Shown here in pieces: positions 2,131-62,955 of a stretch of 64,000 nucleotides of DNA; the stretch's first letter is position 1, and each line of letters begins with the position of its first letter. Origin of the DNA: an uncultured Bacteroidales bacterium (GTDB lineage Bacteria; Bacteroidota; Bacteroidia; Bacteroidales; FEN-979); the NCBI GenBank assembly GCA_963785325.1, contig CAWAVC010000025.1, positions 202,051 through 266,050 on the forward strand, given 5' to 3'. The position numbers were made by a program, and so were the translations under genes. Below the pieces are notes generated by a model. It was not told where the DNA came from, did no database searches, and saw only the letters and a program-made list of their open reading frames with translations.

Positions 2131-2733
2131 GTTGGGTGTTGGGTGTTGGGTGTTGGGAATCAGGCACTGGGTACTGGGCACTGGGTACTGGGTACTGGGT
2201 ACTAGGTACTGGGTACTAGGTACTGGGTACTGGGTACTGGGCACTGGGTACTAGGTACTGGGTACTGGGTACTGGGTACTGGGTACTGGGCACTGGGTAC
2301 TAGGTACTGGGTACTGGGTACTGGGTACTGGGTACTGGGTACTGGGTACTGGGTACTGGGTACTGGGTACTGGGTACTGGGTACTGGGTACTGGGTACTG
2401 GGTACTGGATACTGGGTACTGGGTACTGGATACTGGGTACTGGGTACTGGGTACTGGGTGCTGGGTACTGGGTACTGGGTACTGGGTGCTGGGTACTGGG
2501 TACTGGGTGCTGGGTACTGGGTACTGGGTACTGGGTGCTGGGTACTGGGTGCTGGGTACTGGGTACTGGGTACTGGGTACTAGGTACTGGGTACTGGGTG
2601 CTGGGTACTGGGTACTGGGTGCTGGGTACTGGGTACTGGGTACTGGGTGCTGGGTACTGGGTACTAGGTACTGGGTACTGGGTACTGGGTACTGGCTACT
2701 GGGTGCTGGGTACTAGGAACTGGATACTGGATA
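2131..2733 (+). repeat. heptamer tandem array, about 85 units of GGGTACT (variants GGGCACT, AGGTACT, GGGTGCT, GGATACT; begins with 3x GTTGGGT)
   Basis: Direct reading. The array starts 6 nt after the stop of the preceding ORF. It is open in all six frames, which produces the artefactual ORFs at 2486-2753. Confidence 0.97.
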
Positions 2734-2821
2734 TTAGCTATTTTCCAATATAGAGAGGGAGGAGAGGTGATACAAAAAATATTTTTATATGTAGTTATTG
2801 TTTGAATTAGTAAAAAAGCCT

Positions 2822-4897
2822 ATGAAAAGTGTACTGGAATTCTGTCTGGCATTACTTTTTATTATTCCTGTTGACGGACATTCACAGGATGAAAACCGGG
2901 ATCTACTCGAAAGAATGACAGAAAAGTTATCAGAAACATCTGATAAACCTATCGACTTTTCAGAAATCTCAGAGTGTCTTGACCACCTGAAAGACCATCC
3001 TATCAATCTGAACAACACGACCCAGGAAGAGCTCAGTCAATTAGTGTTCCTGGATGACAGGCAGATCAGCAATCTCATCCGGTACATTGTTACTTATGGA
3101 ACAATCTATTCTGTATATGAACTCAAAGTGGTAGATGGTTTTGATTCTGCAACCATTCGAAAAATTCTACCCTACGTGTCCATTGGGCCGGAAAAGGAGA
3201 AACATCCAATCAGGATAAATGATCTACTGAAATCAGGAAGACACCAACTTGTGATAAGAGCCGGGCAGGTTGTCCAGAAGCAGGCCGGATACCATGTTTC
3301 AGATTCACTGCTTAAGAAGAATCCCAATGCCGGATATGAGGGTAGTCCTGCGAGACTTTATTTCCGCTATTCCTATTCCTTTTATAATCGTCTTTCGATA
3401 GGCTTCAGCGGACAGAAAGATGCCGGTGAACAGTTTTTCAGGGGAGCTCAGAAATATGGGATGGATTTTTATTCCGGGTATATCAGTCTTCAAAATACAG
3501 GCATACTCAAACAGATTACGATCGGTAATTTTAATGTTGACTTTGGACAGGGACTTACTTTCAGTTCCGGCATTTCAGCGGGAGCCATTCCAGGAACGGG
3601 AAACGTAAGAAGATATGCACGGGGCATCGTGCCAAGCCAGTCGGTCAATGAAGAGAATTATCTCCGGGGAATTGCCATGGTGTTAAAAAAATGGAAATTC
3701 AGGTTATCCCTTATCTGTTCAACTCATAAGCGAGATGCAAATGTGACGGGGGTAGATACGGTTACCGGCGATGCTGGAATCGTTAGTTCATTTACTGAAA
3801 CCGGATATCACCGGATCCCAAGGGAAATTGAAGACAAGAATTCCATCCGTGAATCCATCCTGGGAGGCAATGTCAACTTTAAGAACTCTTTCTTTTCCAT
3901 CGGTTTTACCGGTTTCCATAGCCACTGGAGCGCAGACCTGGAGCCAAAGATCTATCCCTACAACCTTTTTACTTTTCATGGAAAGGAAAACATGAATGCC
4001 GGGGTTGATTTCCAGGTCGCGTTGCCTGATATATATATATCCGGCGAATGTTCCCGAAGCAGGAATGGAGGAATGGCATTTGTTTCCGGTATCCAGTTTA
4101 CTCCCGATCCAAGGATGATGTTTTCTGTTTCATTGCGTGACTATCAGCGCAATTACCAGGATCTTTTATCAAATGCGCCAGGACAAAACAGTTCAAATGA
4201 AAATGAAGAAGGGGTACAGGTTACCTTCAATGCCGGGATTGCGCCAGGTTTGGGTTTGACCGGCTATGCCGATATTTACCGGTTCCCCTGGCTGAAGTAC
4301 AGAACCGACAGCCCATCCTATGGAAGTGAATATCAAATGCAGTCAAATTATACTGCCGGCAGATTTATTAAGATGTTCTTACGACTCAGGATCAGGTCTA
4401 AACAGATTAATAGTACTGAGGCATCGCGGCCGGTCAATGTATTGCAAGAAGAAAAAATAATCACGCTGCGTTACCAGGCTGATTGGCAGGTAACCGAATT
4501 TTTGCTTTTAAGAAGCTGTTTTGATTGGCTGCAAAACCGTTATAAAAAATCCACTCCAGCTTATGGTTATTTACTCAGCCAGAACCTCGTGTACAAACTC
4601 CCGGTACATCATTTTTCATTTATTTTACTTTATGCCTTGTTTGATACCGACTCCTATAACGAAAGGATCTATTCTTATGAAAGTGATGTACAGTACAGTA
4701 ATTCAATTCCTTCTTATTATGGGAAGGGAATTCGTTGTATGATCATGATCGATTGGGCGCCTTATCACTGGTTTGATTTTTCCCTGAGATACGGACAGAC
4801 CTGGTATTCCGACAGAAACGTAATTGGTACCGGTCTCGACCAGATCAACGGCAGTACAAAATCGGAAGTAGAGTTGCAGTATAAGATGAGGTTCTGA
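2822..4897 (+). CDS. helix-hairpin-helix domain-containing outer-membrane protein
   Basis: Signal-like N-terminus MKSVLEFCLALLFIIPVDGHS. ComEA-like HhH segment INLNNTTQEELSQLVFLDDRQISNLIRYI. Long beta-rich region ending ...QYKMRF. ATG 2822 preferred over TTG 2798. Confidence 0.6.
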   Translation: MKSVLEFCLALLFIIPVDGHSQDENRDLLERMTEKLSETSDKPIDFSEISECLDHLKDHPINLNNTTQEELSQLVFLDDRQISNLIRYIVTYGTIYSVYELKVVDGFDSATIRKILPYVSIGPEKEKHPIRINDLLKSGRHQLVIRAGQVVQKQAGYHVSDSLLKKNPNAGYEGSPARLYFRYSYSFYNRLSIGFSGQKDAGEQFFRGAQKYGMDFYSGYISLQNTGILKQITIGNFNVDFGQGLTFSSGISAGAIPGTGNVRRYARGIVPSQSVNEENYLRGIAMVLKKWKFRLSLICSTHKRDANVTGVDTVTGDAGIVSSFTETGYHRIPREIEDKNSIRESILGGNVNFKNSFFSIGFTGFHSHWSADLEPKIYPYNLFTFHGKENMNAGVDFQVALPDIYISGECSRSRNGGMAFVSGIQFTPDPRMMFSVSLRDYQRNYQDLLSNAPGQNSSNENEEGVQVTFNAGIAPGLGLTGYADIYRFPWLKYRTDSPSYGSEYQMQSNYTAGRFIKMFLRLRIRSKQINSTEASRPVNVLQEEKIITLRYQADWQVTEFLLLRSCFDWLQNRYKKSTPAYGYLLSQNLVYKLPVHHFSFILLYALFDTDSYNERIYSYESDVQYSNSIPSYYGKGIRCMIMIDWAPYHWFDFSLRYGQTWYSDRNVIGTGLDQINGSTKSEVELQYKMRF

Positions 4898-4990
4898 GAT
4901 CAGAAATAATAAATTTGTTCACAATAAGTGAACTTTTATAGCAAATGACCATATATTTGCATTCTGTTGATGATTATTAAGACAATTTAG

Positions 4991-5440
4991 ATGAAAACGT
5001 TGAAATATAAGATAATCAAATCCCTAAAGCAGTATCAACAGTATTGCAAAACATTAGAGATACTGGTTGGTACAAAGTCAAAGAGTAAAGAGGTCAGGGA
5101 TGAAATTGAACTTTTGACTTTTTTAATTTTTAAATGGGATTCTGAAAATTCTTCTACCAAGGATCTTGATCCAATTGAACTGTTTCATTCGCTTATGAAG
5201 GAACATAATCTCAGAGCCAAAAACCTGGTCAATATATTAGGCGTAAGTAAAGGGATGATCTCGGATATTTTAAATTACAAAAAAGGTTTATCAAAGGATA
5301 TTATCCGAAATCTGGCTGGATATTTCAAGGTTTCCCAGGAAGCTTTCAACCGCACTTACAAATTGAAAAATCCTGTAAATTCCCGGTTACAGGATGCAAG
5401 TTTGATGAATACGTCCAAAGAGCTTGAAATGATTTATTAA
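4991..5440 (+). CDS. XRE-family HTH protein, HigA-like antitoxin (no partner toxin ORF seen)
   Basis: HTH segment NLVNILGVSKGMISDILNYKKGLSKDIIRNLAGYF preceded by a helical N-domain, as in HigA-type antitoxins. Confidence 0.5.
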   Translation: MKTLKYKIIKSLKQYQQYCKTLEILVGTKSKSKEVRDEIELLTFLIFKWDSENSSTKDLDPIELFHSLMKEHNLRAKNLVNILGVSKGMISDILNYKKGLSKDIIRNLAGYFKVSQEAFNRTYKLKNPVNSRLQDASLMNTSKELEMIY

Positions 5441-5460
5441 ACTATAACCTATCGGGTAAT

Positions 5461-6039
5461 TCACTTTAATAAAATTTCCAGTACAACATTCGCCTGCATA
5501 TTTGCGACCATCCCCACCCTTGGGGCAATTGGAGGTAAATCAGAGGTAATTTCAGAGATTTCATCTCCACAGATAAACATATTATCGACCTGCCGGCAAT
5601 GAATAGTATCATTTCCGCCCCACCCTGCTACACCAAGTCCCACAATGAGTGGTTTTTCAGGAAATGTCGTAAGAATGGTTCCGATGAGTATCTCTTTTTG
5701 ACCAGCCTGGTCAAATGCTTCTACGATGACATCGCAATCCTTGAAGAGAGCAGGAATATTTTTCTCCGTAAGACGGATCTTGTGAGAAATTACATTTACT
5801 AATGGATTGATCTTTTGAATATTTTCCTTTAATGCATCTACCTTTGGTAACCCGATCTGGTCATAGAAAAAATACTGACGATTCAGGTTGCTCTCGCTTA
5901 TCACATCAAAATCAGCGATGATCAGGGTACCGATCCCGACCCTGGCAAGTGCCACAGCGCAATTGGATCCAAGTCCACCGGCGCCTGCAATCCCGACAAT
6001 TTTTTGCTGAAGGATTTTTTTTATCTCATTGAAGGTCAT
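5461..6039 (-). CDS. thiF: ThiF-family (family 2) adenylyltransferase
   Basis: Rossmann motif IVGIAGAGGLGSNCAVALARVGIG, DFDVISESNLNRQ, about 190 aa. Start moved to the internal Met (MTFNEIKK). Confidence 0.7.
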   Translation of the reverse strand: MTFNEIKKILQQKIVGIAGAGGLGSNCAVALARVGIGTLIIADFDVISESNLNRQYFFYDQIGLPKVDALKENIQKINPLVNVISHKIRLTEKNIPALFKDCDVIVEAFDQAGQKEILIGTILTTFPEKPLIVGLGVAGWGGNDTIHCRQVDNMFICGDEISEITSDLPPIAPRVGMVANMQANVVLEILLK

Positions 6040-6242
6040 GGTGTGGTTTGAGACTAAAGGATGATGGACAAAGACCAACACCTCACCTCCAGACTCCCTC
6101 TCCTGAAGGAGAGGGGGTAAGATAGATGTGACTTGATCCCAGACAAAAATAATAAATCCGGATGAATGAAAATCACTAACTTTGCAATAGTATCCTGAAA
6201 TGTAACTTATCCGGAAGTATTTTCTATCAACTCAACCTTACT

Positions 6243-7976
6243 ATGTCAAGAAGAAAATTGCTCATAAGGGATTTGACTTTGCGTGATGGACAGCAATCCC
6301 TTTTTGCCACTCGGATGACCCAGGAGCAGGTCGACCGTGTTCTACCTTATTATAAAGATGCGAAATTTTATGCCATGGAAGTCTGGGGCGGCGCTGTTCC
6401 CGATTCCGTTATGCGTTACCTGGGTGAAAATCCATGGGAGAGGTTAGAAAAAATCAAAGCAGCTATCGGAGATGTTTCGTTTCTGACTGCTCTTTCAAGG
6501 GGAAGAAATCTTTTTGGATACAATCCTTACCCGAATACGGTCATCGAGGGGTTTAACCGGAATGCCATTCGTTCAGGCATAGGGATCATGCGGATTTTCG
6601 ATGCCCTGAATGATCTCGATAACATGAAATCCACCATAAAATATGTGAAGGAAAATGGAGGATTGGCCGATTGTGCTTTGAGTTTTACTGTGGATCCGAA
6701 ATTTTCAACAAAACAAAAATTCCATTCATGGATAAAGCTGAAATCCCTTCCCCATCATATTTTCACCCTGGATTATTTTACAGGTAAGTCAAAGGAACTC
6801 GAAGCCATGGGCGCCGATATGATAAGTATCAAAGACATGGCCGGGCTTATAACTCCTTCAGTATCCGGGCAACTTGTCCGCAAACTAAAGGAAGAAGTCG
6901 GGGTTCCCATTGATTTCCATACGCATTGCACACCGGGATTCGGTCTTGCTTCAGTGCTTATGGCAATCGTCAATGGAGCTGATGTGGTTGATACCTCCAT
7001 CTGGAATTTTGCAGGAGGGCCTGCTGCTCCTGCTTTTGAGCTCATTCAGATCTTTGCCGACCGCATGGGAATTGACACGGGGGTTGATCTGGATGCTGTT
7101 GTTAAAATCAATAAAGAGCTCAGGGTCATCCGGGAAGAATTGGGAGATTTTGATACCTCCCGTCAGTTTCCAAAGGAGTTCGATATCACAAGAGACAAAC
7201 TTCCCAGGGAAATTAACCGTCAGTTCACCAAAGCCATCTATATGGCAATACACGAAAAGGAAGAAGAGCTGCTGGAAGCCTGCCGTGAGATTGAAGACTA
7301 TTTTCAATTTCCCCAACCGGATGAAACAATCCGGAAAGCTGAAATACCAGGGGGAATGTACACGAATATGCTGGCCCAGTTAAAACAACTCAAAATGGAT
7401 CACCTCTTCCCAAGGGTACTTGAGCTGGTTCCCCTTGTAAGAATAAAATCGGGGTGCCCTCCTCTTGTTACACCGACCAGCCAGATTGTCGGGGTTCAAG
7501 CAGTGAACTGCGTAATCGACGAAAACAAAGGACAACCTTTCTTTACCACAAAATCAATCCAGTATGTCAACCTTGTAAAAGGTCTTTATGGCAAAACACC
7601 TATTCCGATAGATCCTGATTTCAGGGAACATCTTACCGGAGTCAGAGAAGAAACCTCCTATGATTCAAAGAATTATAAAAAGCAGGAGAATACGGTCTTT
7701 GAAGATTACGGCGACATGAAACTGGCACAGAATGAAAAGGAAGAACTGCTGCTGGAACTGTTCCCGACTGTTGCCCGCGATTTTCTGACCCGGTGCGTCG
7801 AAGAAAGATACACGGAAAATATATACAAGATCGAGGAAGAAAAACGTCGGAAACAACAGGAAGCACACGATGCCTATGAAAGACTTACTCCCGAAGAAAA
7901 ATTCAAACGTATCGAAAAAGGTTTGTATAATTATCCATGGCTTTCATATCCGGATGAAGACCTGGGAAGATCTTAA
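6243..7976 (+). CDS. carboxyltransferase, oxaloacetate decarboxylase alpha / transcarboxylase 5S-like, without a biotinyl domain
   Basis: N-terminus LIRDLTLRDGQQSLFATRMT...AMEVWGGA is typical of the HMGL-like pyruvate carboxyltransferase domain. No AMKM biotinylation motif. Confidence 0.7.
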   Translation: MSRRKLLIRDLTLRDGQQSLFATRMTQEQVDRVLPYYKDAKFYAMEVWGGAVPDSVMRYLGENPWERLEKIKAAIGDVSFLTALSRGRNLFGYNPYPNTVIEGFNRNAIRSGIGIMRIFDALNDLDNMKSTIKYVKENGGLADCALSFTVDPKFSTKQKFHSWIKLKSLPHHIFTLDYFTGKSKELEAMGADMISIKDMAGLITPSVSGQLVRKLKEEVGVPIDFHTHCTPGFGLASVLMAIVNGADVVDTSIWNFAGGPAAPAFELIQIFADRMGIDTGVDLDAVVKINKELRVIREELGDFDTSRQFPKEFDITRDKLPREINRQFTKAIYMAIHEKEEELLEACREIEDYFQFPQPDETIRKAEIPGGMYTNMLAQLKQLKMDHLFPRVLELVPLVRIKSGCPPLVTPTSQIVGVQAVNCVIDENKGQPFFTTKSIQYVNLVKGLYGKTPIPIDPDFREHLTGVREETSYDSKNYKKQENTVFEDYGDMKLAQNEKEELLLELFPTVARDFLTRCVEERYTENIYKIEEEKRRKQQEAHDAYERLTPEEKFKRIEKGLYNYPWLSYPDEDLGRS

Positions 7977-7977
7977 G

Positions 7978-8088
7978 AAAATGAAGAATGAAGAATGAAG
8001 AATGAAAAATGAAGGATGGAGTATAAAGAATGAAGAATGAAGAATGAAAAATGAAGAATGAAAAATGAAGGATGGTGGATTGAATGAC
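7978..8088 (+). repeat. heptamer array GAATGAA (with GGATGGA variants)
   Basis: Direct reading. Starts at the stop codon of the preceding gene. Confidence 0.9.
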
Positions 8089-8198
8089 ACCGGGCGATAT
8101 GCAGCATTTACCCTATCGAACTTTTTGAATGACTACTAGTTACATTGATCTTTTTATTATTTTTACAATCGGAATCGTTTGCTTTAAATCCGATCGTT

Positions 8199-10361
8199 AT
8201 GAAACTTGAAGAATTCACGGAGAAACACAAACTACTCGCAACTTACAAGTACACCTGGGCTCCAATCGACAAAGGTTACAATAACCGTACGCTATACGTT
8301 AATGTGGGTGATCGCACGTTCAAAGAGAAGCCGATCACACAGGAAATGAAAGATAAATTTATCGGAGGGAAGGGATTTGACCTCCGGCTTTTGTGGGATG
8401 CTACTCAACCCCAGACAAAATGGAATGATCCGGAAAACGAGATCGTTATTTCCGGAGGGCCTTGTTGCGGAATCACTCAATATTCGGGAGCAGGGAAAGC
8501 CATTTGTTGTGCTATCAGTCCGGAAACCGATATTGTCATCGACTCCAACGTGGGGGGGTACTTTGGTCCCTTTCTGAAATTCTGCGGGTTTGATGCCATT
8601 GAATTGCAAGGAAAATCGGATCAGGAAATCCTGATATTATTGGATGAAGAACGTGAAGTCACCGAGATCTATGAAGCCGGTGATTTGCCTTCTGATAGTC
8701 ATGTTCTCGGAGAAATACTTCATGAGACATTTGCAAAGGAAAACAACGAGAAGGACAAAATAAATGTGGCTGTTGTCGCTGCGGGTACAGCTGCGGAGCA
8801 TTCGCTCATCGGGATGCTAAATTTCACCTTCTATGATATGAAACGCAAGCTGGTCAGGCTGAAACAGGCTGGTCGCGGGGGGATTGGCACGGTTCTTCGC
8901 GATAAGAAAGTGAAGGCGATGGTCGCAAAGGTTAAGTCTATCGGAGGCAACCGTAACAATGTGGCGAATCCTGAAGCTATCCAGGAACGCGGACGCCGCT
9001 TTAACAAAGAGATGCGCGAGTTGGATGACCAGCAGAACGAAATGCGTTCAAAAGGAACAGCCCACCTCACCCTGATCATGAATGACTATGATCTTTTACC
9101 GGTTAAAAATTTTCGCTTCGGGAGCCATCCTGATGCTGTAAGGATAAGCGGGGAAGTCTGGAAATCGCACTTTACACAAAATGTACCCGATGGATGCTGG
9201 ATAGGCTGCAATATGGCCTGCGCCAAAGGTGTGGATAATTATGAACTGCGTACCGGTCCATACAAAGGAGATAAGGTAATTGTCGATGGACCCGAATATG
9301 AAACAACTTCTTCACTGGGATCCATTGCCGGGATCTTTAACCCGGATTATACCATCGAAGCAAACTTTTATTGTGATACTTATGGTATCTGCACTATCAG
9401 TTGGGGAACCATCCTTGGTTTCGTCATGGAATGTTATGAGACCGGTATCCTGAATGAGGAGCGTACAGGGGGACTGAAACTTAATTTCGGGAATGCCGAT
9501 GCAGCCATGAGCCTTCTGCACCAGGTATCAAAGGGTGAGGGATTTGGACTCATCGCCGGACAGGGGGTCAGAAAGATGAAAGAAATCTTTGCAAAGAGCG
9601 GCTGGGGAGATCCGAAATTTATGCAGGACATAGGAATGGAAAACAAAGGCCTGGAGTATTCACAATATGTTTCCAAAGAATCACTTGCCCAGCAGGGCGG
9701 ATATGCAATGACAAATAAAGGTCCGCAACACGATGAAGCATGGCTGATCTTTATGGATATGGTAAATAACCAGATACCTACATTTGAAAAGAAAGCAGAA
9801 GCGCTTCATTACTTCCCGATGTTCCGGACCTGGTTTGGCCTGGCAGGATTCTGCAAACTTCCCTGGAATGATGTTGAGCCCGAAGACAATCCCAAAACTT
9901 CCGAACCCGCAAAAGTACCCGAGCACGTCGACAATTATGTGACCATATTTAATGCTGTTACAGGCAAGAACATAGATAAAACCGAATTGTTAAGGCAATC
10001 GGAAAGGGTTTATAATTTTCAGCGGATCTTCAATCTTCGCAGGGGCTATGGCATGCGGCAGCATGATGCTCAGCCTTATCGTGCATGCGGACCGGTGACA
10101 AAAGAAGAGTATGAATCGCGTGCTGAACGTTATAACAAACAGCTTTTAGAGAAGGTAAACTTTGACCCTGCGGGGAAAACAACTGAAGAGAAGATGGCAA
10201 TGCTGAGGAAATACAGGGAAGACCAGTATGAGAAACTATTGGATGCGGTTTATGAGCGCCGCGGATGGAATAAAAACGGAGTTCCAAAGATAGAGCATCT
10301 GAAAAACATCGGCATGGATCTGCCGGAGTTGATTGAGACCGTGACACCGTACCAGGAGTAA
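8199..10361 (+). CDS. aor: aldehyde:ferredoxin oxidoreductase family protein (tungstopterin enzyme type)
   Basis: AOR N-domain (NRTLYVNVGD..., GGKGFDLRLLWD), GRGGIGTVLRDKKVKAMV, and C-terminal domains with EYETTSSLGS and GICTISWG motifs. Start moved to MKLEEF. Confidence 0.85.
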   Translation: MKLEEFTEKHKLLATYKYTWAPIDKGYNNRTLYVNVGDRTFKEKPITQEMKDKFIGGKGFDLRLLWDATQPQTKWNDPENEIVISGGPCCGITQYSGAGKAICCAISPETDIVIDSNVGGYFGPFLKFCGFDAIELQGKSDQEILILLDEEREVTEIYEAGDLPSDSHVLGEILHETFAKENNEKDKINVAVVAAGTAAEHSLIGMLNFTFYDMKRKLVRLKQAGRGGIGTVLRDKKVKAMVAKVKSIGGNRNNVANPEAIQERGRRFNKEMRELDDQQNEMRSKGTAHLTLIMNDYDLLPVKNFRFGSHPDAVRISGEVWKSHFTQNVPDGCWIGCNMACAKGVDNYELRTGPYKGDKVIVDGPEYETTSSLGSIAGIFNPDYTIEANFYCDTYGICTISWGTILGFVMECYETGILNEERTGGLKLNFGNADAAMSLLHQVSKGEGFGLIAGQGVRKMKEIFAKSGWGDPKFMQDIGMENKGLEYSQYVSKESLAQQGGYAMTNKGPQHDEAWLIFMDMVNNQIPTFEKKAEALHYFPMFRTWFGLAGFCKLPWNDVEPEDNPKTSEPAKVPEHVDNYVTIFNAVTGKNIDKTELLRQSERVYNFQRIFNLRRGYGMRQHDAQPYRACGPVTKEEYESRAERYNKQLLEKVNFDPAGKTTEEKMAMLRKYREDQYEKLLDAVYERRGWNKNGVPKIEHLKNIGMDLPELIETVTPYQE

Positions 10362-10850: not shown

Positions 10851-10912
10851 ACTTTGCAAAACCTCAAGATTTTCGAGTCAAACGTCACTATTTTTCCATT
10901 TTGCTATTTTAC

Positions 10913-37215: not shown

Positions 37216-37216
37216 G

Positions 37217-52936: not shown

Positions 52937-53015
52937 TGAAAAATTATTAACATTTTTTTGGAGAAGTTAATTTTTCGAGTAAATTTGTTACTCATTTTCA
53001 CGAGATCAATGCCTT

Positions 53016-54139: not shown

Positions 54140-54161
54140 TGAGTGGTGAATAGTGAATGGT
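54131..54161 (+). repeat. 5' arm of cassette A (AGTGAGT, GGTGAAT, AGTGAAT)
   Basis: GTGGTGAATAGTGAATGGT at 54143-54161 is the perfect reverse complement of 54579-54597. Confidence 0.95.
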
Positions 54162-54177
54162 AAAAAAATGAATTTTC

Positions 54178-54524
54178 ATGGATCATAAAGATCTGGAGGT
54201 TTGGAAAGAATCAATGCTTCTTGCAAAGGAGGTATATTTTTTGACAAAAGGGTTTCCCAAAGAAGAAATATATGGGATTACCTCCCAAATCAGAAGAGCA
54301 TCGGTATCAGTTCCATCAAATATCGCTGAAGGCGCTGCAAGAAGTAGCGATAAAGAATTCATTCAATTTCTTTATATTTCCCTTGGTTCTCTCTCTGAAT
54401 TGGAAACTCAATTATTGTTATCCCGGGATTTGGAATTCATGAGGAATCCAGATATCTTACCAAAAATCGAATCGACAAAAAGAAAATTTTAGGTCTGATC
54501 AAATATCTGAAAAACAAAATTTAG
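54178..54524 (+). pseudogene. four-helix-bundle protein (23S rRNA IVS protein / Avd-like), copy A, with a 1-nt indel in an A-run near the 3' end (or a sequencing error)
   Basis: About 85% aa identity to copies B and C. After ...IESTK the tail KKILGLIKYLKNKI continues in another frame. The junction is at 54478-54490. Confidence 0.8.
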
Positions 54525-54548
54525 AAATAATGTAGTCGAATTCCCGCA

Positions 54549-54597
54549 CCCACACACACTACTAACTATTCACCTCTCACCATTCACTATTCACCAC
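54549..54597 (-). repeat. 3' arm of cassette A (inverted GGTGAAT/GGTGAGA units)
   Basis: See the 5' arm: 19-bp perfect complementarity. Confidence 0.95.
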
Positions 54598-55134
54598 TTG
54601 TTAGATACCCTTATCACAAGCAAGACGCGGATTAAGCTGCTGCTGAGGTTTTTCCTGAACAGCAACACTACTTCTTATCTGCGAAACCTGGAGACGGATT
54701 TCGACGAATCTACCAACTCCATCAGGATCGAGCTGAACAGGTTTGAGAAAGCCGGTTTGCTGGTTTCCGGGAAAGAACAGAACCGGAAGGTTTATAAGGC
54801 CAATACCAACCATCCCCTATTTCCCGATATCAACAATATCCTGAGGAAGTACATCGGGGTCGATCAGATCATCGATAAGGTGCTCGGACACCTGGGATCT
54901 GTAAATAAGGCATATATCACGGGTGATCTTGCGAGAGGAAAGGACGCCGACAGCATCAACCTCTACCTCATCGGCACTGAACTCGATCTCGACTACCTCA
55001 AACATCTCATAAAGAAGACTCAAACGCTGATACACCGCGGTATCAAGTATAAACTGCTGGACGAAGGGGAAGAAGCGGAATTTCTCAAAGAGAATCCAGA
55101 TGCATTTGTTATTTGGAAGGGGAATGGTGAATAG
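54598..55134 (+). CDS. winged-helix transcriptional regulator with a C-terminal nucleotidyltransferase-like domain
   Basis: MLDTLITSKTRIKLLLRFFLN...YLRNLE...IRIELNRFEKAGLL (ArsR-like wHTH). The TTG start directly abuts the repeat arm. Confidence 0.55.
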   Translation: MLDTLITSKTRIKLLLRFFLNSNTTSYLRNLETDFDESTNSIRIELNRFEKAGLLVSGKEQNRKVYKANTNHPLFPDINNILRKYIGVDQIIDKVLGHLGSVNKAYITGDLARGKDADSINLYLIGTELDLDYLKHLIKKTQTLIHRGIKYKLLDEGEEAEFLKENPDAFVIWKGNGE

Positions 55135-55238
55135 TGAATGGTGAGAGGTGAGAGGAGAAAAAGTGAGAGGTGAGAGGTGAGAGGAAAAAAAGTGAGAGGT
55201 GAGAGGTGAGAAGACGTGAGATGTGAGAAGTGAGAAGT
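55122..55238 (+). repeat. 5' arm of cassette B (GGTGAAT, then GGTGAGA blocks, GATGTGA, AGTGAGA)
   Basis: GTGAGAGGTGAGAGGTGAGA at 55192-55211 is complementary to part of 55628-55655. Confidence 0.95.
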
Positions 55239-55255
55239 AAAAAAAAAAGAATTTT

Positions 55256-55609
55256 ATGAATCATAAAGAGTTGGAGGTTTGGAAAGAGTCAATGATTCTT
55301 GCAAGGGAAGCTTACCTTTTGACTAAAGGTTTTCCTAAGGAAGAATTGTATGGAATTACTTCACAGATAAGAAGAGCATCGGTTTCTATACCATCAAATA
55401 TTGCAGAAGGTGCTGCACGAAGCAGTGATAAAGAATTCATTCAATTTCTATATATATCTCTGGGGTCACTCTCTGAACTTGAAACCCAATTCTTATTATC
55501 AAAAGATTTGAAATTTATTGAAAACCTTGAGGTTTTACATAAAATCGAATCGATAAAAATGAAACTTCTCGGCTTGATAAAATACCTGAAAAACAAAAAG
55601 AAAAAATAA
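55256..55609 (+). CDS. four-helix-bundle protein (23S rRNA IVS protein / Avd-like), copy B
   Basis: LEVWKESMILAREAY...SQIRRASVSIPSNIAEGAARSSDKEFIQFLYISLGSLSELETQ, 117 aa. Confidence 0.85.
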   Translation: MNHKELEVWKESMILAREAYLLTKGFPKEELYGITSQIRRASVSIPSNIAEGAARSSDKEFIQFLYISLGSLSELETQFLLSKDLKFIENLEVLHKIESIKMKLLGLIKYLKNKKKK

Positions 55610-55627
55610 CATCATACCTGTATTTAC

Positions 55628-55655
55628 ATCTCACCTCTCACCTCTCACCTCTCAC
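55628..55655 (-). repeat. 3' arm of cassette B (inverted GGTGAGA x4), followed by an AAACTTA array to 55710
   Basis: Direct reading. Confidence 0.95.
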
Positions 55656-55710
55656 AGCTTAACACTTAAAACTTAAAACTTAAAACTAATAACACTTAAA
55701 ACTAATACTT

Positions 55711-56413
55711 TTGAAAGCAGTAATTCTGGCGGGGGGTAAGGGAACGAGGTTGAAACCTTATACTACCGTTATTCCGAAGCCATTGGTGCCGGTTGGGGAG
55801 ACTTCGATTATCGAGATCCTGATCAGGCAACTTAAAAAGTCGGGAATTGAAGAGGTGGATGTGTGCCTGGGCCACTTTGCCGAAATCATCATGGCCTTCC
55901 TCGGAGATGGCAGCAAATGGGGAATAAAGATCAGGTATTCCGTTGAAACAAAGCTTATGGGGACAGTTGCTCCTCATTAAACTGCTCAGCGACCTGCCTG
56001 AGAATTTCCTGGTCATGAATGGCGATCTGCTGACAAATCTTGACTTTATGAATTTGTATGCTACCCATCTTAATAATGATTCATTGCTGACCGTTTCAAC
56101 GTATCAGCGGACGACAAAAATTGATTTTGGCGTTATCGAAACTGAAGGACAATCTGAGAAAGTTACCGGTTTTAAAGAAAAACCTGAATATAACTTCGAA
56201 GTCAGCATGGGGGTTTATGTGATGAACAGGAAGATCCTTGACTTTGTTCCCGATGACCAGCCTTTTGGGTTTGACGACCTGATGATCACACTGATTCAGA
56301 AGAAACAACCTATCTCAATCTACCGCTTCAATGGTTATTGGCTCGATATCGGGAGGCCGGATGATTATGAGAAGGCGAATGAGGATGTGGGAAAGGTGAG
56401 AGGTGAGAGGTGA
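55711..56413 (+). pseudogene. sugar-phosphate nucleotidyltransferase, split by a 1-nt indel (or a sequencing error)
   Basis: ILAGGKGTRLKPYT..IPKPLVPV in ORF1 and LVMNGDLLTN...WLDIGRPDDY in ORF2. The junction is at 55969-55977. TTG start. The stop lies inside a GGTGAGA unit. Confidence 0.8.
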
Positions 56414-56417
56414 GAAG
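56394..56417 (+). repeat. 5' arm of cassette C (GGTGAGA x3)
   Basis: Direct reading. Confidence 0.9.
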
Positions 56418-56434
56418 AAAAAAAATAAAAAAGT

Positions 56435-56788
56435 ATGAATCATAAAGATTTGGAAGTTTGGAAGGAATCGATGCTTCTTGCAAAGGAAGTATATCTTGTG
56501 ACAAAAGGTTTTCCTAAGGAAGAATTGTATGGAATTACTTCACAGATAAGAAGAGCATCGGTTTCTGTACCATCAAATATTGCAGAAGGCGCTGCACGAA
56601 GCAGTGATAAAGAGTTTATTCAATTTCTATATATCTCTCTTGGTTCCCTTTCTGAACTTGAAACCCAATTATTATTATCCCGGGATTTGAAATTTATTGA
56701 AAATCTGGATTTTTTACCAAAAATCGAATCGGTAAAAATGAAACTTATCGGCTTGATAAAATATCTTAAAAACAAAATGAAAAAATAA
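56435..56788 (+). CDS. four-helix-bundle protein (23S rRNA IVS protein / Avd-like), copy C
   Basis: 117 aa, about 90% identical to copy B. The nucleotide tract 56507-56566 is identical to 55328-55387. Confidence 0.85.
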   Translation: MNHKDLEVWKESMLLAKEVYLVTKGFPKEELYGITSQIRRASVSVPSNIAEGAARSSDKEFIQFLYISLGSLSELETQLLLSRDLKFIENLDFLPKIESVKMKLIGLIKYLKNKMKK

Positions 56789-56806
56789 CATCATAGTTGC
56801 ACTTAC

Positions 56807-56834
56807 ATCTCACCTCTCACTTCTCACTTCTCAC
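56807..56834 (-). repeat. 3' arm of cassette C (inverted GGTGAGA/AGTGAGA units)
   Basis: Direct reading. At least 13 bp is perfectly complementary to the 5' arm. Confidence 0.9.
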
Positions 56835-56844: not shown

Positions 56845-57916
56845 TTGAAGATCGTAACGGTTATCGGGGCAAGGCCGCAGTTTATTAAGGCGGCGACTTA
56901 TGTCACGGTTACTTTGCATGTATCCTGATGTTGAAGAGATCCTCGTGCATACAGGGCAGCATTATGATCCGAATATGTCGGATATCTTTTTCGAGGAGCT
57001 GGATATTCCGCATCCTGATTTTAACCTGGAGGTCGGCTCAGGTTCTCACGCTGTTCAGACCGGTAAAATGCTCAGGGGTATAGAGACTATCCTTATGGAT
57101 AAAAAACCAGATTGGACACTGGTGTACGGTGATACAAATTCGACCCTTGCCGGTGCGCTTGCTTCCACGAAACTCAATATCCCCGTGGCTCATGTTGAGG
57201 CAGGGCTTCGATCCTTTAACCGGAAGATGCCTGAAGAGATCAACCGGATCGTGACAGACCATATTTCCGACCTCCTCTTCGCCCCTACCCCCACGGCTAT
57301 GGTCAACCTTGAAAAGGAAGGGCTGCTCGGATCAAGCTTCCAAACCGGAGATGTGATGTTCGATAGTACGCTATTTTACAAAGAGAAAATACTCAGGAAT
57401 CCTGACACGTATAAGACTAATGGACTTCCGGATAAATACCTGCTGGCTACGGTGCATCGTGCCGAAAATACCGATAACATCAATAACCTGAGAAACATTT
57501 TCAAGGCATTCTCTGAATCCCGGGAGACCATTGTGTTGCCCATCCATCCACGAACCCGGAAAAGCATCGCCAATATCATTCAGATTCCTGAAAATGTTCA
57601 CCTCATCGATCCCGTCGGATACCTTCAGATGCTTTATCTGACGATACATTCAGTCAAAGTCCTTACTGATTCAGGAGGCTTGCAGAAAGAGGCTTATTTT
57701 CTTGGTAAACAATGTATTACCCTGCGTACGGAAACGGAATGGCTGGAGACAGTTCACGATAATTGGAATATCGTTACAGGAACAGACCCGGATAAGATTC
57801 TGGGGGCTATACGGTCGGAAGTTCCTGATAAGCCTCAACATTCATCGTTTGGAGATGGACATGCGGCGGAGGCGATCGTTGAGAAGATAAAATGGGTACT
57901 GGGTACTGGGTACTAG
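56845..57916 (+). pseudogene. wecB: UDP-N-acetylglucosamine 2-epimerase with a frameshift after codon ~17 (or a sequencing error)
   Basis: (TTG)KIVTVIGARPQFIKAAT lies in one frame and SRLLCMYPDVEEILVHTGQHYDPNMS... in the next. There is one extra nt at 56896-56902 relative to the paralogous fragment at 62984. The tail WVLGTGY and the stop lie in a GGGTACT array. Confidence 0.8.
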
Positions 57917-58158
57917 GTACTGGGTACTGGGTACTGGGTACTAGGTACTGGGTACTGGGTACTGGGTACTGGGTACTAGGTACTGCAGACAAAGCGACGT
58001 GGTGAACTGGTGACAGAGTGATGTGGTGAACTGGTGAGAAGTGAATGGTGAGAGGTGAATAGTGAGTGGTGAATAGTGAGTGGTGAATAGTGAATGGTGA
58101 ATGGGAAAAAGTAATAAAGTGACAAAGTAACAAAGTAACAAAGTAACAGAGTAACAAA
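57894..58158 (+). repeat. mosaic array: GGGTACT x about 12, GGTGAACT/GGTGACAG, GGTGAAT/AGTGAGT, AAGTAACA octamers
   Basis: Direct reading. Confidence 0.95.
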
Positions 58159-59317: not shown

Positions 59318-60665
59318 CAGGCGGACGAAAAAAAGTCACAAAGTGATAGAGTGATAGAGTGACAAAGTAAAAAAGCGGACAAGCGGACAAGCGGACGGAC
59401 GAGGTGGTGAGAAGTGAGAGGTGAGAAGTGAATGAAAAATTAATAAAAAGTCACAGAATTCACAAAGTAAAAAAGCGGACAAGCGGACAAGCGGACAAGC
59501 GGACGGACGAGGTGGTGAGAAGTGAGAGGTGAGAAGTGAATGAAAAATTAATAAAAAGTCACAGAATTCACAAAGTAAAAAAGCGGACAGGTGAACAAGC
59601 GGACAAGCGGACAAGCGGACAAGCGGACAAGCGGACGGACGAGGTGGTGAGAAGTGAGAGGTGAGAAGTGAATGAAAAATTAATAAAAAGTCACAGAATT
59701 CACAAAGTAAAAAAGCGGACAGGTGAACAAGCGGACAAGCGGACAAGCGGACAAGCGGACAAGCGGACGGGCGAGGTGGTGAGAAGTGAGAGGTGAGAAG
59801 TGAATGAAAAATTAATAAAAAGTCACAGAATTCACAAAGTAAAAAAGCGGACAGGTGAACAAGCGGACAAGCGGACAAGCGGACAAGCGGACGGGCGAGG
59901 TGGTGAGAAGTGAGAGGTGAGAAGTGAATGAAAAATTAATAAAAAGTCACAGAATTCACAAAGTAAAAAAGCGGACAGGTGAACAAGCGGACAAGCGGAC
60001 AAGCGGACAAGCGGACAAGCGGACAAGCGGACGGGCGAGGTGGTGAGAAGTGAGAGGTGAGAAGTGAATGAAAAATTAATAAAAAGTCACAGAATTCACA
60101 AAGTAAAAAAGCGGACAAGCGGACAAGCGGACAAGCGGACGGACGAGGTGGTGAGAAGTGAGAGGTGAGAAGTGAATGAAAAATTAATAAAAAGTCACAG
60201 AATTCACAAAGTAAAAAAGCGGACAGGTGAACAAGCGGACAAGCGGACAAGCGGACAAGCGGACGGGCGAGGTGGTGAGAAGTGAGAGGTGAGAAGTGAA
60301 TGAAAAATTAATAAAAAGTCACAGAATTCACAAAGTAAAAAAGCGGACAGGTGAACAAGCGGACAAGCGGACAAGCGGACAAGCGGACAAGCGGACAAGC
60401 GGACAAGCGGACAAGCGGACGGACGAGGTGGTGAGAAGTGAGAGGTGAGAAGTGAATGAAAAATTAATAAAAAGTCACAGAATTCACAAAGTAAAAAAGC
60501 GGACAAGCGGACAAGCGGACAAGCGGACAAGCGGACAAGCGGACGGGCGAGGTGGTGAGAAGTGAGAGGTGAGAAGTGAATGAAAAATTAATAAAAAGTC
60601 ACAGAATTCACAAAGTCAGAGTCACAAAGTAAAAAAGTGACAAAGTAAGGAAGTGAGAACCTTGA
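59318..60665 (+). repeat. higher-order repeat: 10 composite units of about 108-157 bp
   Basis: Each unit has (CAAGCGGA)n with n about 3-8, with or without GGTGAAC, followed by a constant module CG(A/G)GCGAGGTGGTGAGAAGTGAGAGGTGAGAAGTGAATGAAAAATTAATAAAAAGTCACAGAATTCACAAAGTAAAAAAGCGGA. The constant module was counted 10 times. Confidence 0.95.
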
Positions 60666-60689: not shown

Positions 60690-61544
60690 ATGAATACCCA
60701 TGTAGACATAGGTGAAATAATCTTATATCAGCCGGACGATAAATCCACACAACTTGAAGTCCGCATAGATGAAGAAACTGTATGGTTATCGCAAAGCCAA
60801 ATGGTTGAGCTTTTCAGTTCTACAAAGCAAAATGTAAGTTTGCATATTAGCAATATTTTTAAGGAAAATGAATTAGACCCAACTTCAACTGTCAAGGAAT
60901 ACTTGACAGTTCAATTGGAAGGAACAAGAAGGGTAAAGCGAAAGATGACCGTTTATAATCTTGACGTCATCATATCTGTAGGATATCGGGTTAAATCTCG
61001 GCGTGGTACGCAGTTTCGGATTTGGGCTAACCAGGTACTGAAAAATTATTTACTGAAGGGATATGTTCTGAATCAGCGTGTCGACAGGATTGAAAAAAAG
61101 CTGTTGGATCATGATCAAAAATTTGACTTAATGATAAAGACCAACCTGCTGCCAAACGAAGGGATTTTTTATGACGGGCAGATTTTTGATGCGTACCAGT
61201 TTGCATCGGATTTAATCAAATCTGCTAGCAAATCCATTGTGCTGATTGACAACTACGTGGATGAAAGCGTATTGACATTACTTTCGAAAAGAGCCACTGG
61301 AGTGACAGCTATGATATACACAGCCTCAGTTTCAAAACAACTGGCACTGGATCTGAAACGCTTTAATGCCCAATACCCGGTAATTAATGTGAAAACTTTT
61401 ACCAGATCGCACGACCGTTTCCTGATCATTGACAATTCTGCAATTTATCACATTGGGGCTTCATTAAAGGATCTTGGAAAGAAATGGTTTGCCTTTTCCA
61501 AAATCAAGTTTGATGCAATGGAGATGATTAAAAAATTGAAGTGA
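60690..61544 (+). CDS. RhuM-family protein (virulence-RhuM N-domain plus a C-terminal HxD/PLD-like segment)
   Basis: EVRIDEETVWLSQSQMVELF...NLDVIISVGYRVKSRRGTQFRIWANQVLK. C-terminal SHDRFLIIDN..IYHIGASLKDLGKK. Confidence 0.65.
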   Translation: MNTHVDIGEIILYQPDDKSTQLEVRIDEETVWLSQSQMVELFSSTKQNVSLHISNIFKENELDPTSTVKEYLTVQLEGTRRVKRKMTVYNLDVIISVGYRVKSRRGTQFRIWANQVLKNYLLKGYVLNQRVDRIEKKLLDHDQKFDLMIKTNLLPNEGIFYDGQIFDAYQFASDLIKSASKSIVLIDNYVDESVLTLLSKRATGVTAMIYTASVSKQLALDLKRFNAQYPVINVKTFTRSHDRFLIIDNSAIYHIGASLKDLGKKWFAFSKIKFDAMEMIKKLK

Positions 61545-61730
61545 AAGTCATAAAGTCAAGAAGTCACAAAGTAACAAAGTGACAAAGTGATAAACGGACA
61601 AGCGGACAGGAGAAAATCGTGACGCGGAAATCGTGGGAAGTGAGAGGTGAGAGGTGAGAGGTGAAAAAGTGAGAAGTGAGAGGTGAGAGGTGAGAAGTGA
61701 GTGGTGAGAAGTGAGTGGTGAGATGTGAAA
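61545..61730 (+). repeat. mosaic array: AAGTCA(C/T)A octamers, CAAGCGGA, AATCGTGACGCGG, GGTGAGA/AGTGAGA
   Basis: Direct reading. Confidence 0.9.
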
Positions 61731-61848: not shown

Positions 61849-62268
61849 TTGGCACTTCAAACAATTGACATTCCTAATCTGACTAAAATCCTGGAACAAC
61901 AGTTTCAAGAGATTTTATTTGCTTTTATTTTCGGTTCTGCGAAAGATGGATTAATCAGAACAGAGGGAGATGTCGATATTGCCGTGTGGATAGACGACCC
62001 CAAAAAAAAGATGGATTTGATACCGCGGTTAACAGGAATAGTGGAGTCAATAACTCAAGGCACACCGTGTGATCTTCTACTGCTTAATGAAGCCGGCAGC
62101 CAATTGGCCTTTGAAGCGCTTCAGGGGCAGCTCCTTTTTGTAAGGGATGAAGCGATGGACCTCTATTCAGGGTTTTATGCACAGACTTGCAGGGGGTATG
62201 AAGATGCTATAGGCTGGATGAAAAAACAACTTCAATACCGTGGATATGAAGTACAATGGGATCATTGA
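61849..62268 (+). CDS. MNT-type minimal nucleotidyltransferase (type VII antitoxin candidate)
   Basis: FIFGSAKDG...GDVDIAVW nucleotidyltransferase motif. TTG start. Overlaps the next ORF. Confidence 0.7.
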   Translation: MALQTIDIPNLTKILEQQFQEILFAFIFGSAKDGLIRTEGDVDIAVWIDDPKKKMDLIPRLTGIVESITQGTPCDLLLLNEAGSQLAFEALQGQLLFVRDEAMDLYSGFYAQTCRGYEDAIGWMKKQLQYRGYEVQWDH

Positions 62269-62650
62269 ATCGAAACTAAGAATTATCGAGCAGAAATTGG
62301 GAGAGATTGAAAGCTGGAATATTCAATCATTTGAACAGCTTAAAGAAAGTTCGTTATTGCAAAATGCCCTGGAAAGAGCCCTCCAGGTGAATATCGAAGT
62401 AATGATCGATATCAGCGAACGTATCCTTGCATTAAACAAGGAACGGCCGCTCCCCACAGCGCAGGATAATATCATCAGATTACAGGAGTCAGGAATTATA
62501 TCCACAAGGCCTGAATATAGTGAAATGGTAAAATTCAGAAACTTTATTGTACACCGGTACGAAAAAATTGACCTTGAAATTATTTATGGTATCCTGAAAA
62601 ATAAACTTTTCCTATTCAGGGAATTCATTAATGATATCAGAAAGAGTTGA
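62240..62650 (+). CDS. HepT/DUF86 HEPN-domain toxin candidate
   Basis: RNFIVHRY (the R-x4-H HEPN motif) near the C-terminus, about 130 aa. Confidence 0.7.
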   Translation: MDMKYNGIIESKLRIIEQKLGEIESWNIQSFEQLKESSLLQNALERALQVNIEVMIDISERILALNKERPLPTAQDNIIRLQESGIISTRPEYSEMVKFRNFIVHRYEKIDLEIIYGILKNKLFLFREFINDIRKS

Positions 62651-62689
62651 AGGGTTTGAAGTTTGGATTTCGGATATAGACATCTTGAA

Positions 62690-62955
62690 AAAGTCACAAA
62701 GTCACAAAGTCACAAAGTCGCAGAGTAAAAGGCGGACAGGTGAACAAGCGGACAAGCGGACGAAAAAGGTCACAAAGTGACAGAGTGACAGAGTGACAAA
62801 GTAAAAAAGCGGACAAGCGGACAAGCGGATAAGCGGACGAAAAAAATCACAAAGTCACAGAGTAAAAGGCGGACAGGTGAACAAGCGGACAAGCGGACGA
62901 AAAAGGTCACAAAGTGACAGAGTGATAGAGTGACAAAGTCACAAAGTAAAAAAGG
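62690..62955 (+). repeat. second higher-order repeat (two units of about 120 bp built from AAGTCACA/AGTGACAG octamers and CAAGCGGA)
   Basis: GTAAAAGGCGGACAGGTGAACAAGCGGACAAGCGGACGAAAAAGGTCACAAAGTGACAGAGTGA occurs twice. Confidence 0.9.

Follow-up and report, generated by a model that had tools for sequence, protein, structure and literature searches.

Why should unrelated tandem repeats, set between genes of both orientations, carry their G-rich strand on the same side of a bacterial chromosome? The question is raised by 64,000 nucleotides of an uncultured Bacteroidales bacterium (GTDB lineage FEN-979; GenBank assembly GCA_963785325.1, contig CAWAVC010000025.1, positions 202,051 to 266,050 of the forward strand), hereafter the window, which means the whole 64-kb stretch. 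A preliminary description of this DNA had noticed that the arrays are strand-polar whatever the orientation of neighbouring genes, and had proposed a coupling to replication. Here, we show that transcription does not set the polarity; the composition of silent codon positions suggests that array orientation is likely linked to replication. We give a probability of about 0.55 to the reading that replication direction, and not the neighbouring genes, sets the orientation of the arrays.

The window has a GC content of about 0.42, and its arrays cover around 7 kb, or 11% of the sequence. Once merged, the Tandem Repeats Finder output amounts to about 105 arrays, their period being 7 or 8 nt or a multiple of either, and the two-unit pattern GGGTWCTGGGTWCT alone gave 207 matches against 0 expected. 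At least six unrelated unit families are present: GGGTACT/GGGTTCT, GTGAGAG/GGTGAGA, AATGGTG/AATAGTG, AATGAAG/GAAGAAT, AAGCGGAC and AAAGTCAC. For the analysis of polarity we scored the arrays of at least 20 bp in which G and C differ by at least 4 (n = 76). They are predominantly intergenic, with 66 of the 76 lying outside open reading frames (ORFs), and many arrays occupy an entire spacer, touching stop or start codons.

Nearly all arrays carry the G-rich strand on plus, as the preliminary description had it: 68 of the scored arrays are G-rich on this strand and 8 are C-rich. A composite repeat at 59.4-60.6 kb supplies around 18 of the 68; once it is collapsed, the count becomes 50 against 8 (p = 1e-5 against an expectation of 60%, set so as to account for the surplus of G in intergenic DNA outside arrays). 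Counted by spacer, 28 of the 35 array-bearing spacers are net G-rich on plus and 7 are C-rich (one-sided p = 2.5e-4 against 50%; p = 0.01 against 60%), and when five structured exceptions are set aside the proportion rises to 28 of 30. Sequence-predicted canonical G-quadruplex (G4) motifs, defined as four or more tracts of at least three G with loops of 1-7 nt, follow the same pattern, with 59 on plus and 3 on minus. Such motifs occur in the GGGTACT/GGGTTCT arrays and not in GTGAGAG, AATGAAG, AAGCGGAC, AAAGTCAC or the other families, and the sole property common to all array families is an excess of G over C. Two earlier wordings have to be given up in consequence of base composition: 'purine-rich' is not a general rule, since GGGTTCT-type arrays are 47-51% purine, and a 'GT-rich leading strand' does not describe arrays that are richer in A than in T overall (AT skew +0.12) and show no replication-type AT component.

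Could this pattern be a regional coincidence or an artefact of assembly? Several split ORFs in the window do suggest long-read indel errors. However, two independent assemblies of the same strain (L129 and L134; related loci are designated here by L numbers) reproduce the arrays, including those of 351 and 486 bp, the binomial tests are strongly significant and coherent polarity recurs on other contigs, which makes such an origin hardly credible.

Transcription does not set the polarity

If arrays were G-rich on the sense strand of their host operon, the window would appear polar because two thirds of its genes lie on plus. A total of 57 of the 76 scored arrays are indeed placed between two plus-strand genes, and 52 of these 57 are G-rich on plus. 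Two small C-rich arrays, at 22391-22417 and 10888-10910, adjoin minus-strand genes, and the arms of the inverted array pairs that bracket certain genes of the family PF05635 (the cassettes described below) keep the frame of their gene in all nine cases. Arrays beside minus-strand genes are listed here with the region that holds most of these genes.

27556-44560, minus strand: region with most of the minus-strand genes (mutS, split; DHOD-like; nifJ/PFOR; mutS2)
22391-22417, minus strand: small C-rich (TAATTTCACCCTAA)n array, upstream of the minus-strand gene 21510-22379
30280-30384, plus strand: (GTGAATG)n and (GTGAGTGGGAAAA)n, separating the divergent genes for MutS (minus) and the SpoU methylase (plus)
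36729-37214, plus strand: (GGGTACT)n, 486 bp, filling the entire convergent spacer between the S49 peptidase gene (plus, stop at 36726) and the DHOD-like gene (minus, stop at 37217)
38232-38582, plus strand: (GGTACTG/GGTTCTG)n, 351 bp, between the minus-strand DHOD-like gene (start at 38230) and nifJ (stop at 38617)
38589-38615, minus strand: short inverted (CCTAGTA)n; together with the last part of the array before it, it forms a hairpin directly 3' of nifJ
42261-42296, plus strand: (GGTGCTG)n, between nifJ (minus) and mutS2 (minus)

Pfam confirmed the gene identities that had been read from the sequence beside these arrays (MutS, DHO_dh-like, PFOR/nifJ, and MutS2 with a Smr domain). The region also includes three plus-strand genes at 30460-36726, encoding SpoU, a TPR protein and the S49 peptidase. 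Ten array-bearing spacers touch a minus-strand gene; 8 of them are G-rich on plus (1151 bp) and 2 are C-rich (about 50 bp). All the minus-gene-adjacent arrays named at the outset keep the common polarity (30280-30384, 36729-37214, 38232-38582, 42261-42296 and 44590-44706). Against transcription, the arrays at 38232-38582, 42261-42296 and 27530-27553 are located between two minus-strand genes and yet are G-rich on plus; the G-rich strand of the first is non-coding for both the DHOD-like gene and nifJ. Within the window alone this evidence is thin, as it consists of 10 spacers (8 against 2), four of which separate two minus-strand genes (3 against 1).

Relatives provide a broader view. In an extended sample of same-lineage contigs and array-bearing metagenome loci, in which arrays between co-directional genes were counted, the G-rich strand was the coding one 43 times and the non-coding one 44 times. 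Within single loci the choice is coherent, with coding to non-coding ratios of 13:2 in L260, 4:9 in L259, 3:9 in L256 and 1:5 in L204 (heterogeneity chi-square p = 0.009). In a homologous polysaccharide (capsule) operon, whose genes all lie on one strand, the arrays are G-polar in the window, L260 and L262; in L259 and most of L256 they are C-polar. Thus, the independence from transcription direction claimed for the window holds beyond it, and the idea that the sense strand of the operon dictates array orientation is largely refuted already and most improbable.

Silent sites and replication direction

An excess of G over C at silent sites is a classical signature of the leading strand. We measured GC skew at fourfold-degenerate codon positions and compared genes of both strands, a design that separates the effect of the strand from that of transcription; it replaced GC skew at third codon positions per small locus, which is too noisy and was misleading for the frameshift-ridden L129. 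On the coding strand, fourfold skew is +0.018 for the 34 plus-strand genes of the window and -0.163 for the 12 minus-strand genes (Welch p = 0.0007, Mann-Whitney p = 0.002). Therefore, the plus strand carries around 9% more G than C at silent sites in genes of either direction. The minus-strand genes within 27556-44560 range from -0.08 to -0.30, as genes on the lagging strand should, and 65% of the coding bases of the window are on plus. The replication coupling first proposed in terms of a GT-rich strand is thus supported indirectly, and only in its G component: the G-rich strand of the arrays is the G>C strand at fourfold sites, whichever way the genes point.

Does this measure report where a gene is located or simply which gene it is? 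Locus L132 (ENA ERZ21831265 ctg82162c, 5,001,610-5,022,623, on a circular contig of 5.27 Mb), whose DHOD-like protein is 81% identical to that of the window, holds few arrays, which show no polarity. Its fourfold skews differ from those of the same genes in the window (PFOR, -0.29 in the window and -0.03 in L132; DHOD, -0.30 and +0.14), which means that the measure tracks the strand on which a gene lies and not which gene it is. Across this syntenic block the same genes have the opposite silent-site skew, and the orientation of mutS2 with respect to nifJ is reversed. Between the window genome and L132, the block appears to have switched replication strand.

A closer relative, L130 (syntenic; DHOD-like protein with 90% amino acid identity), has arrays made of other units (TGGTGAA, ACTGGTGA, AGTGGTGAATGGTG), at other positions and of other lengths, and lacks the 351- and 486-bp arrays. 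Nevertheless, polarity relative to the common genes is unchanged, and the fourfold-site skew has the same sign as in the window. Because L130 keeps the same polarity with different arrays, polarity is a property of the region and is not inherited with the arrays. Array length also varies between strains, one array measuring 40 bp in one and 82 bp in another.

The association was also sought in independent loci, namely 12-28 usable polar-array loci among the matches listed for a scan of metagenome contigs with two AAGCGGAC units, a heterogeneous set. Genes co-oriented with the G-rich array strand had fourfold skews of +0.04 to +0.12, and anti-oriented genes of -0.03 to -0.09 (p = 0.001-0.02), a gene-level result that was robust to masking and to ORF-length cut-offs. 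The common polysaccharide operon behaves likewise, with skews of +0.05, +0.09 and +0.14 in its G-polar versions versus -0.05 and about 0 in the C-polar ones. As a control of the pipeline we took at least 119 cross-phylum loci with a GGGTWCT array, among the matches listed for a genome-contig scan with three units. They showed a slight opposite trend, the G-rich array strand being weakly the C>G strand at silent sites. Therefore, the positive association is neither built into the method nor universal to such arrays. The matches listed (L009-L128) place perfect (GGGTWCT)3 arrays in many phyla, with members among the Planctomycetota, Acidobacteriota, Gemmatimonadota, Verrucomicrobiota, Cyanobacteria, Bacteroidota and Vibrionaceae.

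Part of these observations might suit a strand-specific generator or a local copying process unrelated to replication, in which arrays give rise to further arrays of like orientation (through gene conversion or spread from the four-helix-bundle cassettes) or bring the polarity of a donor through horizontal transfer. Polarity is coherent within loci and differs among homologous capsule loci, which are often exchanged horizontally, and in L256 it switches at the border of the polysaccharide locus. Also, the cassettes carry arrays, 'empty' inverted array pairs without a cassette gene exist, and Y1 transposase genes are frequent on contigs of the lineage. However, copying one array would not yield a common polarity in at least six unrelated families, the arrays of L130 were replaced (units and spacers) while polarity was kept, and polarity correlates with the synonymous-site GC skew of ordinary genes. 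In addition, the window has no gene for a reverse transcriptase, a Y1 transposase or another candidate enzyme. The pattern does not call for a strand-specific copying machine, and we consider this origin doubtful.

The alignment of polarity with GC skew could likewise be expected of selected polar signals, that is, clusters of motifs like the FtsK orienting polar sequences (KOPS) or Chi, read from origin to terminus by FtsK or by translocases of the AddAB/RecBCD type. Known polar motifs are G-rich and biased to the leading strand. AGCGG within AAGCGGAC, CTGGTG within GAACTGGTGACGTGGT and GAAGAAT/AATGAAG (close to GAAGAAG) may resemble motifs of the Chi or KOPS type. However, the units vary too much to represent one recognition motif, and the turnover of arrays among close relatives, together with their near absence from L132, indicates that they are dispensable. 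A role as selected signals thus appears unlikely.

Inverted arms and the proposed explanation

Seven spacers are C-rich: four of them hold the 3' arm of a cassette, one a palindromic element, and two contain tiny arrays. The elements with inverted arms are the following.

44590-44706, plus strand: (TACTGGG)n, 5' G-arm of the inverted pair around the four-helix-bundle gene 44766-45140
45164-45242, minus strand: (ACCCAGT)n, the matching 3' C-arm of this cassette, which departs from the common polarity
50445-50698, no strand assigned: palindromic element with left arm (AATTACG)n at 50445-50467 and right arm (TCGTAAT)n at 50657-50698
54128-54596, no strand assigned: four-helix-bundle cassette with (AATGGTG/AATAGTG)n G-arm at 54128-54161, PF05635 gene at 54178-54492 and (ATTCACC)n C-arm at 54568-54596
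55122-55655, no strand assigned: four-helix-bundle cassette with (GGTGAGA)n G-arm at 55122-55235, PF05635 gene at 55256-55609 and (TCTCACC)n C-arm at 55629-55655
56394-56834, no strand assigned: four-helix-bundle cassette with (AGGTGAG)n G-arm at 56394-56415, PF05635 gene at 56435-56788 and (TCTCACT)n C-arm at 56808-56834

All the inverted segments that the preliminary description had given as the only ones were found (45164-45242, 54568-54596, 55629-55655, 56808-56834, 38589-38615 and 50657-50698), the one at 38589-38615 within an otherwise G-rich spacer. They are not the only ones: further small C-rich arrays lie at 21051-21090 (inside an ORF), 22391-22417, 10888-10910 and 55658-55707.

The four PF05635 genes (23S rRNA intervening sequence (IVS) protein, a four-helix bundle; Pfam E-values 7e-26 to 1.5e-37) are inserted between ordinary operon genes, and each one has heptamer arrays in inverted orientation on its two sides that could form an enclosing stem. 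The unit varies from cassette to cassette (TACTGGG/ACCCAGT, AATGGTG/ATTCACC, GGTGAGA/TCTCACC and AGGTGAG/TCTCACT) while the arms stay complementary, which amounts to covariation across the four cassettes of the window and five in relatives; the latter (in L256, L259, L260 and L262) have a like arrangement, yet other units. In agreement with a stem, the minimum-energy RNA fold predicted for 55120-55665 pairs the arms around the ORF (z = -6.4). Seen from the cassette gene, the 5' arm is the G-arm and the 3' arm the C-arm in every case; cassette arms therefore follow their own gene, whereas solo arrays do not. As in the IVS of 23S rRNA, a PF05635 ORF is enclosed by stem-capable inverted repeats; unlike it, these cassettes are sited between protein-coding genes of operons and not inside a 23S rRNA gene, and their arms are heptamer arrays with a co-varying unit. 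Rfam found two tRNAs only in the window and no rRNA. The cassettes look like an IVS-type element outside rRNA, possibly mobile or processed by RNase III. The arms of the palindrome are 90-100% complementary and around 190-213 nt apart, with no four-helix-bundle gene between them; its AATTACG unit recurs at 34863-34885.

How might replication direction set the orientation of the arrays? Orientation-dependent repeat instability is known from yeast and E. coli model systems. Long arrays would persist only where their G-rich strand is the leading-strand sequence and hence the template of lagging-strand synthesis, presumably the plus strand in the window. Stability or growth would then depend on orientation: a G-rich, partly G4-forming strand that templates leading-strand synthesis may cause contraction or counter-selection, while arrays in the opposite, favoured orientation could expand to hundreds of bp. 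C-rich arrays might be retained for another reason, as distal arms of the PF05635-cassette stems (in RNA or DNA), as terminator-like hairpins or as part of the palindrome, and would stay short. Some orientation-dependent growth, loss or selection is required, because the background G excess yields at most around 60% of G-rich random seeds. The longest disfavoured array measures 79 bp against 618 bp for the longest favoured one in the window, and 38 against 262 bp in the C-polar L259; in seven of the nine cassettes the arm with the locally favoured polarity is the longer. Short disfavoured arrays fit both the orientation-dependent instability of structure-prone repeats (PMC7063842) and the enrichment of G4 on leading strands (PMC12581993). 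The cause must be broader than G4, because most families cannot form a canonical one.

Several points weigh against replication direction as the determinant. The GTGAGAG, AATGAAG and AAGCGGAC families are devoid of canonical G4, and a mechanism based only on G4 cannot explain the polarity that they share. Gene-level p values are partly pseudo-replicated, and pairing within loci gives a weak test, with a positive difference in 8 of 11 loci and a mean of +0.13 (Wilcoxon p = 0.065; sign test, p = 0.23). In the window, the difference in skew between plus- and minus-strand genes is small inside the 27-47 kb block, and both tRNA genes are on the minus strand. L256 (Ga0395910_000015) is ambiguous, since its left 3 kb are G-polar, its right part is C-polar and its fourfold skew is near 0. 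The G-rich heptamers of Xanthomonas have no leading or lagging preference (PMC4692102). In L150 (JGI Ga0208828_1001268, 1-9910), from another organism, 14% of the sequence is heptamer or octamer array of mixed G/C polarity, which shows that array-rich genomes do not all obey the G-rich rule. Finally, replication direction is deduced solely from synonymous-site skew and gene-strand bias, and the data are single-replichore fragments of at most 64 kb, in which no switch of polarity at origin or terminus was seen. As for the fragment L150 itself (9.9 kb, GC 0.51), each family is consistently oriented in it, with CTTGTCCG and AAACCCG beside TGGCTTT and GATGCGG.

With these points counted in, replication direction is still the explanation that we favour. 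As to the arrays themselves, we lean towards regarding them as fast-evolving intergenic expansions of many unrelated 7-8 bp seeds, similar to microsatellites or minisatellites, that arise by slippage or unequal exchange. That they reveal a natural bacterial case of replication-direction-dependent repeat dynamics, where any 7-8 bp seed expands with its G-rich strand as lagging template and erodes otherwise, is a tentative and rather doubtful proposition.

Other residents of the window, known repeats and meaning

The remaining arrays are these.

2131-2730, plus strand: (GTTGGGT)n then (GGGTACT)n, about 85 units, G4-capable, G-rich on plus, between two plus-strand genes
7980-8074, plus strand: (AATGAAG)n with zero C
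17197-17814, plus strand: (GGGTACT/GGGTTCT)n, 618 bp, G-rich and only 51% purine
19806-19876, plus strand: (GGTACTG)n
20378-20515, plus strand: (AAATGAA)n, (AGCGGATA)n and (GAAGAAT)n
30999-31274, plus strand: (GGTGAGA)n, (GGGTTCT)n and (AATAGTG)n
46853-46965, plus strand: (AATGGTG)n and (GGTACTG)n
51704-52253, plus strand: (GTGAGAG)n then (ATGGAAG/AATGAAG)n, 550 bp with 1 C only, overlapping the start of the EngB-like GTPase gene
52833-53708, plus strand: several (AGTGAGA/GTGAGAG/GAGCGAAC)n arrays around the NusG-like gene 53016-53402
57893-58158, plus strand: (TGGGTAC)n, (TGGTGAA/TAGTGAG)n and (AAAGTAAC)n
59342-60656, plus strand: higher-order repeat of composite units, 108-156 bp each, in 9-10 copies
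61544-61728, plus strand: (AAAGTCAC)n and (GTGAGAAGTGAGAG)n
62690-62975, plus strand: (AAAGTCAC)n, (AAGCGGAC)n and (ACAAAGTG)n

Each unit of the composite repeat, which is located between an ATPase gene and a RhuM-family gene and has no Rfam match, consists of (AAGCGGAC)n, GGACGAGGTG, three GTGAGAA/GTGAGAG units and an A-rich spacer of around 45 nt. At 36726-36729, 37214-37217, 38230-38232 and 52209-52253 arrays touch or overlap stop and start codons and no ordinary spacer remains; the EngB-like GTPase gene apparently starts within the array at 51704-52253. Such array-filled spacers raise the question of where promoters and translation-initiation signals sit. No degeneracy gradient of the units, a sign of directional growth, was obvious along the arrays, in which variants are grouped in blocks.

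Several proteins of the window carry a C-terminal sorting domain of the type IX secretion system (T9SS), and the nearest homologues of the DHOD-like protein are annotated as proteins from metagenome-assembled genomes (MAGs) of Bacteroidales or Bacteroidia. The window also encodes PFOR/nifJ, an aldehyde:ferredoxin oxidoreductase, MutS and MutS2, and a UpxY/NusG-like gene followed by the polysaccharide locus. Exact look-ups of window proteins gave no identical record for nifJ, MoeA and the second transposase. The two transposase genes, both of the IS4 family (DDE_Tnp_1), lie at 47929-49269 and 22964-24196; the first is identical on at least nine contigs (three ENA assemblies; L003-L008), often near Y1_Tnp genes of the IS200/IS605 type or of the type associated with repetitive extragenic palindromes (REP), known as RAYT. 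In the polysaccharide locus, a nucleotidyltransferase/HepT-like toxin-antitoxin pair (61849-62650) and a RhuM-family gene (60690-61544) are inserted, and arrays part each from its neighbours. Four genes are split into two overlapping ORFs: mutS (27556-30226), with a frameshift near a CCCACCC run at about 28745, the carboxyl transferase gene (45307-46853), the gene for a BNR-repeat T9SS protein (24743-26903) and the NTP-transferase gene (55702-56413), which is intact in the same-strain assembly L134. The splits are probably long-read indel errors. The mutS frameshift, if real, would bear on repeat instability; as the cause of array expansion it was discarded, given that other genes are similarly split and that in L130 mutS is intact yet arrays are present.

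Other identities of the arrays were considered and set aside. An origin as cyanobacterial short tandemly repeated repetitive (STRR) sequences is ruled out by the T9SS sorting domains and by closest proteins from Bacteroidales MAGs. A system of REP or bacterial interspersed mosaic elements (BIME) with a RAYT, whose imperfectly palindromic units measure around 20-40 nt, does not match units of 7-8 nt that are not palindromic, and the window has no PF01797 gene; Y1 transposase (PF01797) genes are present on related contigs. CRISPR, with its repeats of 24-48 nt and unique spacers, was rejected because the arrays have a period of 7-8 nt and no spacers, the 108-156 bp composite repeat has no unique ones and Rfam found two tRNAs only. 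A reading of the arrays as similar to NsiR1 was also dropped.

To our knowledge, bacterial heptamer arrays have been described for 35 years with no agreed cause or function, and earlier surveys saw no clear preference for one replication strand. Like the arrays, KOPS, Chi and architecture-imparting sequences are G-rich words oriented by replichore, but they are single 5-8-mers with a known reader protein, whereas here the words form tandem arrays for which no reader is known. In Xanthomonas (GGGAATC) and Nostoc/Anabaena (GGGGAYT; STRR class), heptamer repeats are split about equally between strands, 43% versus 57% in Anabaena (Rehm et al. 2015; PMC4692102). They are similarly tandem, 7 nt long, mostly intergenic, dispersed, variable in copy number and, when they contain G3, G4-capable; however, they comprise one family with around four units favoured, while here many families reach up to about 85 units with one polarity. 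TAACTGA repeats occur in Beggiatoaceae, Cyanobacteria and some Bacteroidetes; in Beggiatoaceae they have 2-6 copies and point to the downstream start codon, and eight Microcystis sets located between stop codons share one chromosomal orientation, which was left unexplained (MacGregor 2015; PMC4679880). They too are intergenic heptamer direct repeats, with long mixed-heptamer arrays in Bacteroidetes, and are missing from the same spacers of close relatives, but the orientation towards start codons in Beggiatoaceae ties them to translation or transcription, with no replication link shown (PMC4679880).

Two further systems are closer to the polarity itself. The Quadrupia study found G4 motifs enriched on the leading strand of bacteria with marked GC skew (PMC12581993). 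As in the window, the G-rich motif strand is the G>C (leading) strand and the bias is tied to GC skew, yet that bias is a statistical, genome-wide one of single motifs in Bacillota and Pseudomonadota, whereas here long arrays, including those of non-G4 units, are nearly all-or-none (PMC12581993). The yeast CEB1 minisatellite, which forms G4, is unstable when its G strand templates leading-strand synthesis (PMC7063842). It is likewise a G-rich tandem array of template-dependent stability, and its unstable orientation is the one that is missing here; unlike the window, it is a eukaryotic experimental system that involves helicase mutants and not a natural genome-wide pattern (PMC7063842). What is new with respect to known heptamer repeats and to the leading-strand bias of G4 is a multi-family, near all-or-none polarity that is independent of transcription and aligned with silent-site skew. 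This polarity is interrupted only where an inverted arm serves a stem.

What would such a rule mean? If it does not flip at the replication origin and terminus, one would have to look for another strand-specific generator, a more surprising outcome. If it does flip, replication direction can govern the growth of bacterial microsatellites, which would link these arrays to the leading-strand bias of G4 and to orientation-dependent repeat instability, and polarity would become a marker for assigning metagenomic contigs to replichores and for revealing recent inversions or transfers. Should replication direction prove to be the determinant, inversions or horizontal transfers might even be dated by the degree to which polarity has re-equilibrated, and the intergenic DNA of these bacteria would constitute a nearly binary, self-renewing replichore marker that chromosome processing could recruit as a polar signal.

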